Shown here: positions 17,114-21,034 of the stretch, piece by piece
How the letters are laid out: each line of letters opens with the position of its first letter
Numbering within the stretch: the first letter of the stretch is position 1
Assembly: GCA_965221125.1 (NCBI GenBank)
Contig: CBDCRW010000007.1
Coordinates: 544,001 to 608,000, forward strand
Direction of reading: 5' to 3'
DNA: 64,000 nucleotides
From: Alphaproteobacteria bacterium
GTDB taxonomy: Bacteria; Pseudomonadota; Alphaproteobacteria; UBA828
Made by a program: the position numbers and the translations under genes
The notes under the pieces: generated by a model
Told to the model about the DNA's origin: nothing
Database searches by the model: none
Seen by the model: only the letters and a program-made list of their open reading frames with translations

Positions 17114-17422
17114 TCTCGCCCCCTCTCGCCCGCTCGTCCGGCGGTACGTGGCGAACGCGTGTTCTTGTTCTTGCCGGCGCCCGTCTCGCCCGTACCGCCA
17201 TGGGGTGCGGGCATGGGAAGCCACGCCTGCCGGCCGATTGCACCGATCAACGCCGGATGCACCTCGGTCGCTCAGCACAGCATAGAGCGTATCCGCTTCG
17301 CACGGAAACGCTCCGTGCGTCGATCGCTCACGCCCCGGACCATGGTGCGGTGGGCGGCGCCCGCCGCGTGGGTCAGCATCGCGCCATGAGCCGAGCAAAG
17401 TCCCACGCGACCACATCTTCAA

Positions 17423-17572
17423 CGCGCCTTCGGCGGTCCTTTGATTATGCGCGCCTTCGGCGGCCTTTCGATGCCGCGCGCCTTCGGCGGCCTTTCGATG
17501 CCGCGCGCCTTCGGCGCGACCGAATTCCGCGCGCCTGGCGGCGCGACCGATTCCGCGCGCCTGCCGGCGCGA
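17423..17572. repeat. Tandem array of about six 24-27-bp units with core GCGCGCC(TTC)GGCG (REP-like mini-hairpins)
   Basis: gcgcgccttcggcggcctttcgatgcc occurs twice exactly, flanked by degenerate copies. Confidence 0.8.
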
Positions 17573-17885
17573 CTGTTGCGGGGCTTTTCGGAACCTCGTC
17601 AGCCGTTCTGCCCTATCTCACCTTGTCTCGGCTTGTCTCGGCTTATCTCGGAATTTTGGCCAAAAAAATGGGAATTACATACCTGACTTGACAGCCCCGC
17701 GCTGACCTCTCCCGCCCAAACCGACCTATATGCGCTGGGCGGGAGTGGGGGTTACCTCACCACAGCTCGTCACGTCATGCCACACCATGCCTTGACGCTG
17801 ACCTCTCCCGTCCACACCGCCCTATCAGCCTAGGGTGCGCTCGCTCTAATCCCCACCCTGTGGGCCGTAATCCGCATTTGCGGTC

Positions 17886-17914
17886 TTGACCCGAAATTCC
17901 TGTCACCGTATAAA
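17886..17914 (+). promoter_or_regulatory. sigma70-like promoter
   Basis: TTGACC-N17-TATAAA, predicted start about 17920. Confidence 0.7.
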
Positions 17915-17918
17915 CGGC

Positions 17919-18054
17919 CCGGCGGGCCGCTCTGGTCCGTCAGTGTTTCGGATCCGATTTCAGGGAGAGTCATTCGAGCTCGATTCAGAATGGTGATCGG
18001 CGCGGTCGTCGCTCCTGCCCTTTTGGAGGGGCGTTCACCGCATCAACCCGCCGG
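17919..18054 (+). ncRNA. Putative structured ncRNA A (family not recognised)
   Basis: Begins at the predicted TSS; CCGGCGGG/CCCGCCGG closing stem; inner stems CCGAT/ATCGG, GTCATTC/GAATGGT, GCGGT/ACCGC, GCCCTT/AGGGGC with G.U pairs on +; strong hairpin at 18097-18123. Confidence 0.5.
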
Positions 18055-18642
18055 TCTGGGCTAAGTCGGTTGGACCCGACCGCCCGTTTCCATCCCGCGC
18101 CGCCCTGCCACAGAGGGCGGCGCAACTCCTTTGTATAGAGGGATTCTCGCTCCCGTCAACCGGCATCCCCGCCCGTTCTTAACCCTTTGCTTTTACGTTA
18201 TTTTCGTAGTTTTGGGTTCCTTCTGCCGCTGACCTTATCGCTCTCGCGTATATGACTTTGACGCGCCTCCGCCTCGCGGTGCCCTCGACTCCATCCATCC
18301 CCGCCGTGCCGGACGTGCCCGCGCTGCCCACGGTTCCCGAAATCTCCGCAGAGGCCGCTGAGCGCCCCGTCAGCGCCGCTGCCGATTCTCCCACCCCTCG
18401 CCCTTCAGCCGTCGAGCGCGCCTCTCCACCCGGTTTTCGTCGCGTCCGCGTCCGCGACTAGGCCCCGCGTCCCCATTCTGCCGTCCCCCTGACGGTCCGC
18501 AAATTTCTTTGCGGACCATCTGCAACTTTCCCCGTCCTGATCATTATATGCCTGGGTGCAGTCGGCTCTCCCTGCGCTCGCCCCTCCGCTCTCCCCGCGC
18601 GATTACCGCCAAACTTCTCAGCGGTGGCAGCGAATCCGGGGC

Positions 18643-19614
18643 ATGCCCCAAGCTGCACCCGGCAAGTTCTATCGTCAGGGCATCTCCTGGCCCGAACTGT
18701 TCGCCCGCTTCCCCGACGACGCGGCCGCCGAGGCGTGGTTCGAGGAGCAACGTTGGGGTACTCCTGGTCAGCCGTCCTACTGCCCGCTTTGTGGTGACAC
18801 GGAGCGCCTCCGCCCCACCCCCAACCGCCGCCCGCTCCCCTACTGGTGTGGCGCTTGTCGGTCGTACTTCTCCGTCCGCACCAACACCGTCATGCACCGT
18901 TCCAAGCTCCCGCTCCAGAAATGGGTCATCGCCATCTACCTCTGGGCCACCTCGCTCAAGGGCGTGTCCTCGATGAAGCTCCACCGCGACCTCGGCATTA
19001 CGCAGAAGTCCGCGTGGTTCCTCGCCCAGCGGCTGCGTGCCGCTTGGTCCGCCCCTGCCGACGCGCCGCCCCCGCCGCCCTTGTTCGCCGGTCCCGTGGA
19101 GGTTGACGAGACCTACCTCGGCGGCAAAGAGCGGAACAAACACGCCAAGAAGAAGTTGCGCGCCGGGCGGGGTGCCGTCGGCAAGACCCCCGTTGTTGGT
19201 GCGCTCGATCGCACCGCCAACCAGATCGCTCTCGCCGTGCTGCCCTCGACCGACCGTCCCACCCTGCACGGCTTTATCGAGCAGCACGTGCAACCGGGTG
19301 CCCAAGTGTATACCGACGAGGCCAGCGCCTATCAGCGCATGCCGTTCCCGCACGACGCTGTGAACCACTCGGTCGGCGAGTACGTCCGCGACCAAGCGCA
19401 CACCAACGGCATCGAGTCCTTCTGGGCGACCTTGAAGCGCGCCTACGCCGGCACCTACCACCACATCTCCCCCGAGCACCTCCACCGCTACGTCGGCGAG
19501 TTCGCCGCCCGCCACAACCTCCGCACCCAAGATACCGAGGCTATGATGGCCGAGGCGGTGGCGCAGATGATCGGCAAGCGCCTCACCTACAAAGAACTGA
19601 TCGGGAAGAACTGA
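18643..19614 (+). CDS. IS1595-family (ISXO2-like) DDE transposase
   Basis: N-terminal zinc ribbon CPLCG...WCGAC, HTH region, VEVDETYLGG, VYTDE, HTNGIESFWATLKR. Confidence 0.95.
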   Translation: MPQAAPGKFYRQGISWPELFARFPDDAAAEAWFEEQRWGTPGQPSYCPLCGDTERLRPTPNRRPLPYWCGACRSYFSVRTNTVMHRSKLPLQKWVIAIYLWATSLKGVSSMKLHRDLGITQKSAWFLAQRLRAAWSAPADAPPPPPLFAGPVEVDETYLGGKERNKHAKKKLRAGRGAVGKTPVVGALDRTANQIALAVLPSTDRPTLHGFIEQHVQPGAQVYTDEASAYQRMPFPHDAVNHSVGEYVRDQAHTNGIESFWATLKRAYAGTYHHISPEHLHRYVGEFAARHNLRTQDTEAMMAEAVAQMIGKRLTYKELIGKN

Positions 19615-19752
19615 CTTTATGCGAAGATTATTCCTTGTGGAAAACTTGTATTGTGTGGATAACTTGAATCGACTATCGTTGGGTTTTTAACGGTTTGTTA
19701 GACTCGAGTTTGGTCGAAGGTGTCGGTGGGGCCGCGAGGCTCGTCCGGTGTT

Positions 19753-19843
19753 TGGCGGAGGAGGTGGGATTCGAACCCACGGTACGGCACAGCCGTACAC
19801 CGGTTGCCTAGACCGGCGCCTTCGACCGCTCAGCCACTCCTCC
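19753..19843 (-). tRNA. tRNA with serine-type body and AGG (Pro) anticodon, CCA encoded
   Basis: GGAGGAG TG GCT GAGCGGTCGAA GGC G CCGGT CTAGGCA ACCGG T GTACGGC TGT GCCGTAC C GTGGG TTCGAAT CCCAC CTCCTCC G CCA; fully paired cloverleaf, long variable arm, G73. Confidence 0.9.
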
Positions 19844-19855
19844 GCGACCTTAGAC

Positions 19856-19885
19856 ACCATAACTTGATCGCGTGGCGGTCGTCAA
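19856..19885 (-). promoter_or_regulatory. sigma70-like promoter for the tRNA(AGG) gene
   Basis: Minus strand TTGACG-N18-TATGGT, ending 12 nt before tRNA G1. Confidence 0.55.
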
Positions 19886-19982
19886 CGCAACAGGTCGCCG
19901 GATACGCCAGATGTAGCAAGCCGGCGCCGGCTTGCTACATCCCGCCTGCCTCGTGAGGCGCATCAGTTCCAGCATCTAGCGA

Positions 19983-20011
19983 TTGCGCCCGCATTGTGCC
20001 TCCGTTACGCT
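19983..20011 (+). promoter_or_regulatory. sigma70-like promoter
   Basis: TTGCGC-N17-TACGCT, predicted start about 20018, matching the 5' end of the downstream stem. Confidence 0.5.
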
Positions 20012-20018
20012 CTCCCTC

Positions 20019-20144
20019 GTCAATGACACGCGGAGCCCGCACGTCGGGTCGCCCGCCGAATACAACAGCCGCACGACCCGGCACGGGGTAGCTCCCCGCG
20101 CTTGGCGAATAGGCGGGACTTCACGCTATCCGTGTGTCGTTGAC
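20019..20144 (+). ncRNA. Putative pseudoknotted ncRNA B (family not recognised)
   Basis: 16-bp closing stem 20019-20034/20129-20144 whose two non-Watson-Crick pairs are G.U on +; inner stem 20043-20051/20074-20082; loop CCCGCC complementary to GGCGGG at 20112-20117. Confidence 0.55.
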
Positions 20145-20213
20145 ACGGCCCGGCACCCGCCGGGCCGCGAGCCGCCCTATATCGGTCGGTTCCAGCGGGC
20201 AGCGGAGGGCGAC

Positions 20214-20588
20214 ATGTGGAAAGCCATTACTCTCAGTCTAGTTCTGGCCTTGAGTTCGGCTGCGCCGACCTGGGCGCAGGATTCTGGCAACGAATTCGTC
20301 ATCACTGTGCCAACAGACTTGGATACGCGCTTGTTCTTTGTGGCGGAGACGCTATCTCCCCATAGGGTGCAAGTGGGGTCGCCGTACAATTATGGTTCGA
20401 TGTACGAAGGTGAGCGGCAACGGCTGGTTCAATTCGCTCGCTGGGGGTGTCAACTCTATGGTCGGGATCGTCTTGCTTATGTCGGAATACAAACCAATGA
20501 TCAACGTTGTGACGAAATGGGTGCGGCCGCCGCCGAGCGCGATCCTCATTGCTACCACATCCACACCTTCGTGTGCGTTGAGCGGTGA
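20214..20588 (+). CDS. Hypothetical secreted protein (124 aa), transposon passenger
   Basis: GGAGGG RBS; signal peptide MWKAITLSLVLALSSAAPTWA; 4 Cys; AT-richer codon usage than host genes. Confidence 0.7.
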   Translation: MWKAITLSLVLALSSAAPTWAQDSGNEFVITVPTDLDTRLFFVAETLSPHRVQVGSPYNYGSMYEGERQRLVQFARWGCQLYGRDRLAYVGIQTNDQRCDEMGAAAAERDPHCYHIHTFVCVER

Positions 20589-20628
20589 GTCGAGTCTCTC
20601 GGCTCGACCTGATGCGCGCCAGTGTTGA

Positions 20629-20721
20629 TGGCGGCGCGTCTAGGAGTTGAACCTAAAACGCCCTGGGGGACGTTCGCTCGGATTGTCAATCCGGCCTCCG
20701 GACCGCCGGAGATGGCGCGCC
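20629..20721 (-). tRNA. allo-tRNA-like gene (8/4 fold, Sec-type D arm, long variable arm), anticodon GAC (Val), CCA encoded
   Basis: GGCGCGCC AT CTCCGG CGGT CCGGAG G CCGGA TTGACAA TCCGA GC GAACGTCC CCCA GGGCGTTT TAGG TTCAACT CCTA GACGCGCC G CCA; one C.A mismatch in the acceptor stem and one at the top of the anticodon stem. Confidence 0.75.
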
Positions 20722-21034
20722 GCCATCTCCGGGAACCCACAATGTAATTCGCAGATCGCTCTGCTTCGCGCTAAGTGATTGATTCCACGTGTCAAGTCAG
20801 GTATATAAATCCCAAAAAAATGTCCTGCCAAACCGAGATACGCCGCATGGGAGCGCCGCATGTTCTCTGTGTGTTCCATGCGGGGAGGTCGCGGATATGG
20901 TCGTCTAAGGCGGCATCGCGGATGCTCACATCGCGGATGCGCCGGCTGCGTTTCGCCCGCCGCCCGACTATCCTGAACGCCCGCCGGAACGGTTCCGCCC
21001 GCGCCGCACAACCCCACAGCCGGAGGCCAGACGC

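Follow-up and report, generated by a model that had tools for sequence, protein, structure and literature searches.

The DNA considered here, in the following the window, is a stretch of 64,000 nucleotides (64 kb; contig CBDCRW010000007.1, positions 544,001 to 608,000) from the genome of an alphaproteobacterium (assembly GCA_965221125.1). The gene in question is a transfer RNA (tRNA) gene that combines the body of a serine tRNA with the proline anticodon AGG and resides on a transposon of the IS1595 family. The genome holding the window is abbreviated as G000 (4.58 Mb on 7 contigs with 68-70% G+C by contig), while G001, G006, G007 and G008 denote congeners and G013 and G018 genomes of the same genus. 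According to ARAGORN, the gene is the only tRNA in the whole window (19753-19843, minus strand), where it is labeled tRNA-Pro(agg) with the anticodon at position 35. It is 91 nt long, and its anticodon is read from 19809 to 19807, i. e. as CCT at 19807-19809 of the plus strand, on which C37 of the tRNA appears as a G at 19806. The Rfam tRNA model (RF00005, gathering score 29) matches the gene with 50.7 bits.

The acceptor stem GGAGGAG/CUCCUCC forms seven Watson-Crick pairs, including G1:C72, G2:C71, A3:U70 and G4:C69. It is followed by a D stem of G10:C25, C11:G24, U12.G23 and G13.A22, and by an anticodon stem CCGGU/ACCGG that closes the loop C32-U33-A34-G35-G36-C37-A38 (CUAGGCA). The variable arm of 17 nt consists of a 7-bp stem and a 3-nt loop, the T arm GUGGG/CCCAC carries an intact T loop UUCGAAU, and the discriminator G73 precedes an encoded CCA. 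Hence, ARAGORN, the Rfam alignment and the sequence itself bear out a sequence-only reading of the stretch, which had proposed a serine-type cloverleaf with a CUAGGCA loop at this place and had listed the serine-type acceptor pairs, C11:G24, G73, the 7-bp variable arm and the encoded CCA. Its description of the cloverleaf as fully paired holds for the acceptor, anticodon, variable and T stems and is slightly overstated for the D stem, in which G13.A22 is a non-standard pair. It had also stated that the CCGGU anticodon stem is usually combined with serine loops. This agrees with the matches listed from the collection genome_contigs, among which CTTGAAA (at least 26), TTGCTAA (at least 26), CTCGAAA (at least 8), TTCGAAA (at least 4) and TTTGAAA (at least 1) were encountered together with only one non-serine loop. 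Broken stems, lost conserved loop bases or truncation, as expected of a pseudogene, were not found in the AGG tRNA, and C37 is its sole abnormality. The cloverleaf rests on the covariance model and on ARAGORN; in the minimum free energy (MFE) fold of the tRNA alone, the D region pairs with the variable region and no cloverleaf is formed.

The elements G1:C72, G2:C71, A3:U70, C11:G24 and G73 as well as a long variable arm are known from work on E. coli as determinants of seryl-tRNA synthetase (SerRS), an enzyme for which the anticodon plays no part in recognition. In bacterial prolyl-tRNA synthetase (ProRS), recognition of the anticodon depends mainly on G35 and G36, both of which are present in the AGG tRNA, while a serine anticodon (NGA or GCU) is missing. 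The host genome encodes tRNA-Ser genes with the anticodons GCU, GGA, UGA and CGA and tRNA-Pro genes with CGG, UGG and GGG, along with one canonical serS (C3:372701-373945) as the sole match above the family cut-off. Identities of the AGG tRNA to the four serine isoacceptors amount to 84, 82, 80 and 75%, compared to at most 70% for any non-serine tRNA of the host (Tyr as the next best with 70%, tRNA-Pro(CGG) with 68%). Moreover, the acceptor, C11:G24 and G73 features recur in the host serine tRNAs, and the T stem GUGGG/CCCAC is the same in host Ser(CGA), Ser(UGA) and Ser(GCU). The three tRNA-Pro genes of the host share C1:G72 and A73, in contrast to G1:C72, G73, the long variable arm and C37 of the AGG tRNA. 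The earlier assignment of a tRNA-Ser body that lacks a ProRS-type acceptor end thus stands, and, as judged from these identities, the AGG tRNA is a tRNA-Ser by descent.

At the upstream site TTGACG-N18-TATGGT, which had been suggested as a promoter before, the consensus scan likewise reports a promoter-like sequence, one of 2 such sites in 3.7 kb versus 0.6 expected from shuffles. Its -10 box ends 12 nt ahead of the mature 5' end, and a TATAGT box is located at the matching place of a homologue in G006 that is described below. The palindrome upstream of the -35 box could act as an operator or as a terminator of the transposase transcript. On the other side of the gene, the trailer contains a segment complementary to the D arm and the 5' half of the anticodon stem. 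A complementary trailer of 16-17 nt is also found in the G006 homologue (L002 about 650-670), and canonical Ser(CGA) genes are without it.

This homologue (G006:C54:692-781) is 88% identical to the AGG tRNA, features a UUCCGAG loop with the arginine anticodon CCG as well as A73, and adjoins an IS4-type transposase fragment and a gene resembling phage Mu Gp27. The two tRNAs differ at 11 positions, 5 within the 7-nt loop and 6 among the remaining 84 (Fisher p = 1.8e-4). Pairing is preserved by each of the four stem differences: from the AGG to the CCG tRNA, the 6:67 pair changes on both sides from A-U to G-C, 12:23 from U.G to C-G, and 7:66 from G-C to G.U. The flanks of the two genes can barely be aligned, with the exception of the -10 box at the same distance and the complementary trailer. 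Because the differences are concentrated in the loop, the stem changes are paired and the flanks have diverged, it can be concluded that purifying selection has kept the body, whereas changes in the loop were either unconstrained or themselves selected for. At the level of these substitutions, the comparison demonstrates selection on the fold of the AGG/CCG lineage. It is a rare lineage, with the backbone pattern in 2 of 21 genomes of the genus and a BLAST match above the level of canonical tRNA-Ser (82%) in 2 of 49 genomes of the order, and the AGG tRNA is a single copy. Searches for further members gave no backbone-pattern match in the collections metagenome_contigs and viral_contigs, none among the matches listed from genome_contigs (at least 116 stretches), and only matches at the level of canonical tRNA-Ser (at most 82%) in plasmid and phage collections. 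One viral match to the anticodon-arm pattern turned out not to be a tRNA.

The AGG tRNA is cargo of a 3,144-bp transposon (17670-20813). A DDE_Tnp_IS1595 transposase, terminal inverted repeats and a target-site duplication are all present (Table 1), and an empty site exists in the congener G007, where only 16 nt separate the two flanks and AAAAAAAT is found once between them. The carrier thereby shares the transposase family, the short terminal repeats and the 8-bp target-site duplication with IS1595-family insertion sequences, for which a duplication of 8 bp is typical. Flanking regions of the insertion are syntenic with congeners at 85-88% identity. As G007 retains the empty site with a single AAAAAAAT, the transposon must have inserted after the split of the two species, and its insertion into this intergenic site is recent. 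The AGG tRNA gene lies 139 nt downstream of the transposase gene and is convergent with it, and both are embedded in a stretch of lower G+C. The start of the transposase is uncertain (GTG at 18556 or ATG at 18643, the latter corresponding to the start of the query), and a Zn-ribbon domain was not detected in the window copy. The leftmost part of the transposon is an 860-nt region in which no gene was recognized.

Table 1. Coordinates of the AGG tRNA gene, its carrier transposon and associated features in the window.
Feature	Position	Strand	Evidence and remarks
Left copy of 8-bp target-site duplication AAAAAAAT	17662..17669	.	Flanks left repeat
Left terminal inverted repeat	17670..17693	+	24 nt, 22/24 match right repeat; unique in genome
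IS1595-family (ISXO2-like) DDE transposase	18556..19614	+	PF12762, E 1.3e-43; 85% identical to transposase of L207
Trailer segment that complements tRNA positions 17-32 (D arm, 5' side of anticodon stem)	19712..19727	-	Inverted repeat, 16 nt, 88% complementary
Serine-type class II tRNA gene, 7/5 cloverleaf	19753..19843	-	ARAGORN; Rfam tRNA; sequence; nearest host Ser tRNAs
Promoter-like site TTGACG-18-TATGGT	19856..19885	-	Consensus scan; predicted function
Perfect 32-nt palindrome, 25 nt upstream of tRNA -35 box	19910..19941	.	Inverted repeat
Conserved non-coding element, ~130 nt	20036..20167	+	Common to related transposons, other genomic sites
Small cargo open reading frame (ORF), 124 aa, hydrophobic N terminus, no Pfam family	20214..20588	+	
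Allo-tRNA-like gene, anticodon GAC (Val)	20628..20721	-	Rfam tRNA-Sec 52.9 bits; MFE fold; sequence
Right terminal inverted repeat	20790..20813	-	24 nt, pairs with left repeat
Right copy of target-site duplication AAAAAAAT	20814..20821	.	Flanks right repeat

A second tRNA gene of the carrier, with the valine anticodon GAC, is situated 68 nt inside the right terminal repeat and received no ARAGORN call. Its acceptor stem is 8 bp long and contains one C.A mismatch, the T stem measures 4 bp, and the D stem of 6 bp is capped by a tetraloop. UUGACAA forms the anticodon loop, the variable arm is long, G73 and CCA are both present, and the MFE fold is a four-arm cloverleaf (z = -3.17). In these traits it corresponds to the 8/4 architecture of the allo-tRNAs in the accessible text of Mukai et al. 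(PMC5389517). A true selenocysteine tRNA, as suggested by the match at 20632-20722, is ruled out by the GAC anticodon and by a search of the 92%-complete genome that found no selA. A tRNA-Sec score of about 52 is not special, because host tRNA-Ser genes also reach about 52 bits. Two sponge and marine metagenome runs, X5 and X6, have contigs with pieces about 95% similar to the GAC tRNA, the changes being located in the variable loop and at a bulge. The transposase and 20494-20818 are likewise represented in these runs by diverged pieces; none of their listed pieces covers the AGG tRNA, about which they are therefore uninformative.

A relative of the carrier is found on a metagenome contig (L207, 3301-5989, 2,689 bp), with terminal repeats like those of the window element and a target duplication that matches at 7 of 8 positions. 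At the position of the AGG tRNA it carries a glycine-like tRNA(UCC) with G1.U72 and G73 that lacks a CCA, and at the position of the GAC tRNA an 8/4 serine-type tRNA(GCG). While the tRNA cargo of the two elements is non-homologous, the intervening element of about 130 nt is 94% identical (93.7%). G000 contains this non-coding element at 4 further sites; within the class it was also detected in 6 of 400 other genomes, and several of all these occurrences are close to IS1595 transposases. It matches the Rfam family sRNA-Xcc1 weakly (33.7 bits, below the gathering score of 53). The cargo ORF of L207 differs from that of the window element and encodes 152 aa with a hydrophobic N terminus.

G000 itself contains a second, 57%-related IS1595 element, element B, in two identical copies on contigs C7 (L031 5746-9207) and C5 (L032). 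It is bounded by 28-nt terminal repeats (89% complementary) and embedded in at least 6.8 kb of sequence over which C7 and C5 are 100% identical. Its tRNA, a 76-nt class I molecule with the serine anticodon GGA, U73 and a C31.U39 mismatch, lies 81 nt upstream of the transposase gene and is divergent from it. A DNA methylase gene and a DUF559 gene are found just outside element B.

Twelve extra serine-like matches within the genus were followed up and revealed a sister set of irregular genes. In G008 (L310 8049-8137), a serine-type tRNA with the loop CUUUAAA (UUA, ochre) lies inside a 5.6-kb IS1595 element with terminal repeats (L310 4193-9780), convergent with the transposase. In G001 (L312 54-141), such a tRNA exhibits the loop CUCUAAA (CUA, amber) and A73, and a degenerate copy with an 8-nt anticodon loop and a mutated T loop is present in G018 (L311 8041-8131). 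These three copies share common flanks, including a hairpin followed by a T run, and the anticodon stems of the UUA and CUA tRNAs differ on both sides (U31-A39 versus C31-G39). A copy in G013 looks degenerate. Overall, a serine-type tRNA with a non-serine loop occurs in at least 5 of 21 genomes of the genus. Among the irregular tRNAs compared (AGG, CCG, GCG, GAC, UAU, GGA and UCC), U33 is retained in 7/7 and A37 in 6/7, and 4 of the 6 contexts examined are on or beside mobile DNA. One more gene of G000 is Ser(CGA)-like (G000:C3:534997-535084; L033 4998-5085) with a 6-nt loop CUCGAA, U3:A70 and an A7.C66 mismatch, and no transposase gene was recognized beside it.

These data are best accommodated if the AGG gene is regarded as a mobile missense tRNA that would be charged by SerRS and compete weakly for rare CCU codons, an interpretation to which we assign about an even chance of being correct. 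The tRNA would be transcribed from its own sigma-70-like promoter and would not depend on CCA addition. Serine could then be loaded by the single host SerRS, as is predicted because this enzyme ignores the anticodon, and EF-Tu may deliver the product like the host serine tRNAs, since the T stem is the same. On the ribosome, A34-G35-G36 would pair with CCU and maybe, to a weaker extent, with CCC, codons for which host tRNA-Pro(GGG/UGG) competes, resulting in low-level substitution of proline by serine. C37 would rule out N1-methylguanosine at this position (m1G37) and weaken stacking, so that decoding is probably inefficient and maybe frameshift-prone, which would render the toxicity tolerable. 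Tolerability would also be aided by the rarity of CCU in G000, where it accounts for 4.7% of proline codons and only 2.6 per 1000 codons, as counted in 2,422 long ORFs with high G+C at third codon positions. With one serS and the normal tRNA-Pro set CGG/UGG/GGG, a reassignment of CCU is impossible, and the AGG tRNA could only compete. By analogy, the retention of U33 and A37, the exact stop anticodons in canonical loops and the precedent of the allo-tRNAs speak in favor of real decoding.

Several observations weigh against such a decoding role. Pyrimidines at position 37 are very rare in working tRNAs and A34 is rare among bacterial tRNAs, and C37 of the AGG tRNA is the lone exception to A37 among the 7 loops compared. 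The predicted precursor of tRNA and trailer misfolds via the trailer complement instead of adopting a cloverleaf. GUC and CGG, the target codons of the GAC and CCG relatives, are very common in G000 (35.5 and 22 per 1000 codons, respectively), which makes efficient decoding by the family less likely. There is also no sign that the window transposase depends on the tRNA: opposite its 4 CCT codons, the L207 enzyme has Q, A, A and P, and never serine. An idea that was rejected on the same grounds is a private code for the element's own genes, as no CCT or CGC/CGT codon aligns with serine: 1 of 10 GTC/GTT codons of the window transposase differs in L207 (Gly), 5 of 24 CGC/CGT codons of L207 differ and are aligned with G, K, K, Q and K, and reading TAA as serine in the G008 element fuses no cargo ORFs. 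Nor is tRNA cargo a general property of the transposase clade. In 29 transposase-homologue loci of other genomes in the class, among them L172 of G286, which is flagged as unpublished, no tRNA lies within 1.5 kb (ARAGORN on all, Rfam on the first 20), a further point against the proposed role. In metagenomes, 9 of 80 transposase loci have an ARAGORN call for a tRNA or transfer-messenger RNA (tmRNA). When terminal repeats were checked in three of these loci (L207, L281 and L211), only L207 had tRNAs inside the element; the allo-tRNA(UAU) of L281 lies outside its 1.5-kb insertion sequence. The call in L257 looks false, and L245, L258 and L286 carry ordinary-looking tRNAs. Finally, the accessible text of PMC5389517 reports that suppression was not observed in E. 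coli with six allo-tRNA(UAU) variants whose anticodons had been converted to amber and that two G-1 tRNAs were charged yet unused in translation. Since some irregular tRNAs are thus charged without being used, a decoding role cannot be assumed.

One alternative holds that the RNA is produced, possibly also charged, and acts for the mobile element instead of in translation, so that the anticodon loop is free to drift. It could act as a toxin-like or addiction RNA, regulate the transposase by antisense read-through or a structured 3' end, or be an aminoacyl donor. The association of irregular tRNAs with mobile DNA, an anticodon loop about as diverged as the flanks on a conserved body, C37, and the retention of the D-arm-complementary trailer in both homologues would all fit, as would the result of the scan, which reports no terminator-like site between the AGG tRNA and the convergent transposase. 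In addition, two variants killed E. coli according to the accessible text of PMC5389517. Yet the constancy of U33 and the near constancy of A37 are not expected in a loop without constraint, the canonical loops of the sister lineage match stop codons exactly, and the divergent orientation of the tRNA in element B precludes a single antisense arrangement. As no toxin-antitoxin or aminoacyl-tRNA-using gene was recognized within the transposon either, a role for the element alone appears unlikely. We consider it to a similar degree unlikely that the gene is a decaying passenger, i. e. a duplicated tRNA-Ser that was caught by the transposon, lost its anticodon and is functionless. Decay could account for the single copy in 2 of 49 genomes of the order, for three loop changes relative to UGA/CGA loops including the unusual C37, and for A73 in place of G73 in the G006 homologue. 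Clearly degenerate relatives do exist (G018 and G000 C3:534997-535084), besides the degenerate-looking copy in G013. However, all stems of the AGG tRNA are intact and CCA is kept, 4/4 stem substitutions relative to G006 maintain pairing although the surrounding DNA diverged, and the -10 box stands at the same distance in both copies. The insertion is moreover recent, with an exact target duplication and 22/24 matching repeat positions.

A remolded proline acceptor, which ProRS would charge via G35 and G36 to yield an extra tRNA-Pro for CCU and no mistranslation, is very improbable. Both bases are present and ARAGORN labels the gene tRNA-Pro, a label that derives from the anticodon. They are opposed by C72 and G73 instead of G72 and A73 of host tRNA-Pro, by the long variable arm, the serine-type D arm and C37 in place of G37, and by 68% identity to tRNA-Pro(CGG) versus 75-84% to serine tRNAs. 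Arginine, valine and stop anticodons on the same body type also make a repeated change of identity unlikely. Even more remote is an error of assembly or binning that affects the loop or its placement, despite 5.8% contamination of the 92%-complete genome and the fact that the only runs holding the stretch at a high share stem from one sample. Logan contigs of run X1 span 19754-19939 with 0 differences and a depth equal to the flanks, although X1 is possibly the sample of origin and hence no independent confirmation. The element is moreover positioned inside a 905-kb contig, between flanks that are syntenic in congeners and match a precise empty site. A mobile missense tRNA thus remains the preferred interpretation. 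From the sequence comparisons, we infer that the AGG tRNA belongs to a pool of serine-type missense and nonsense tRNA cassettes on IS1595-type transposons, which would span this genus and related metagenomic bacteria. More speculative, and rather doubtful at present, is the generalization that an IS1595 subgroup is a vehicle for interchangeable suppressor-tRNA cassettes (missense AGG, CCG, GCG and GAC; nonsense UUA and CUA), which judging from their sequences would mostly use serine-accepting bodies. If true, a simple DDE transposon would alter how a new host decodes particular codons, and mistranslation and stop read-through would become horizontally acquired, selectable traits. Their use could then be conditional, for instance via the palindrome near the promoter or via trailer-controlled maturation.

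To our knowledge, natural bacterial tRNAs with mismatched identity and anticodon are known from very few systems, namely allo-tRNAs, tRNA-ProX and Sec/Cys hybrids. The closest known kind are the allo-tRNAs and the irregular tRNAs found with them, as far as can be judged from the accessible texts of PMC5389517 and the review PMC7609411. Allo-tRNAs cover 35 different codons, with GCG among the predominant anticodons, and their serine identity led to insertion of serine at stop and sense codons in E. coli (accessible text of PMC5389517). Shared traits in these sources are serine identity elements combined with a non-serine anticodon, the occurrence in Proteobacteria, transposon-related genes and several irregular tRNAs per locus; the 8/4 architecture itself is seen in the GAC neighbor and in tRNA(GCG) of L207. 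The AGG tRNA differs by its 7/5 instead of an 8/4 or 9/3 arrangement (12-bp branch), by an ordinary serine D arm and by C37. The long D stem with a tetraloop that typifies allo-tRNAs is absent here and present in the GAC neighbor. Because of its canonical 7/5 cloverleaf and ordinary D arm, the AGG tRNA is by definition not an allo-tRNA, although in principle it would act in the same way. A proline AGG anticodon is not mentioned in the passages and sections consulted of PMC5389517, and in contrast to the allo-tRNAs the AGG carrier is defined to the base by terminal repeats, target duplication and empty site. A literature search found no report of a natural bacterial 7/5 tRNA-Ser with a proline anticodon, the supplements of PMC5389517, which might list one, being outside its reach. 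Nor did it find IS1595 elements with tRNA passengers, with most subscription journals beyond its scope. For comparison, a plain IS1595 relative (L281) measures 1.5 kb with near-identical repeat ends, and the window carrier has grown to 3.1 kb through cargo, two tRNA genes included.

The tRNA-ProX/ProRSx pairs of Streptomyces and Kitasatospora, as presented in the accessible text of PMC11415595, resemble the AGG case in the mismatch of identity and anticodon and in A34 (AGC, AUU and AGU). They differ by a proline identity with alanine, asparagine and threonine anticodons and by a dedicated synthetase paralogue, as opposed to the serine identity, proline anticodon, single serS and transposon carriage of the AGG gene. 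The same text describes yeast tRNA-Ser(CAG) of the CUG-Ser clades, likewise a duplicated tRNA-Ser with a changed anticodon, a change that was possible because SerRS does not read the anticodon. That case is a chromosomal, lineage-wide reassignment, whereas the AGG gene is sporadic and mobile and competes with intact tRNA-Pro. A further parallel is provided by engineered tRNAs. Yeast tRNA-Ser(UGG) mistranslators reportedly needed weakening mutations to be tolerated, and C37 may by analogy be the natural equivalent of such changes, a natural case of toning down a toxic tRNA. In the accessible texts of PMC6827378 and PMC9258585, these mistranslators are laboratory constructs with UGG in a eukaryote, as opposed to the natural, bacterial AGG gene.

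The transposon carriage, the allo-tRNA-like neighbor and the same-genus set of serine-type missense and nonsense tRNAs go beyond the sequence-only reading. The AGG case unites a canonical tRNA-Ser body with a recent carrier defined to the base and with sister cassettes that bear other missense and nonsense anticodons. It thereby makes testable whether such tRNAs actively decode and whether mistranslation is a mobile trait that could be adaptive or selfish. The capacity for codon misreading may pass between bacteria as a mobile gene, and a 3.1-kb element transferable to a laboratory host is convenient for experiments. On a practical note, ARAGORN labels the gene tRNA-Pro, and tRNA counts or anticodon-based inference of the genetic code would therefore be misled.

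Apart from the genes discussed above, ARAGORN returned about 8 further GC-rich calls in G000 that lie inside coding DNA, do not encode CCA, have poor stems and look like false positives, such as 'Leu(gag)' at C3:369163 and C6:298670, 'Gly(tcc)' at C4:555953 and 'Ile(gat)' at C6:916013. To the left of the insertion site, the segment 17422-17668 contains tandem units of 27 nt (17422-17518) and 26 nt (17524-17575). It also includes a 'tctcgg'-rich run of 36 nt (17616-17651), further copies of which are present on several G000 contigs.

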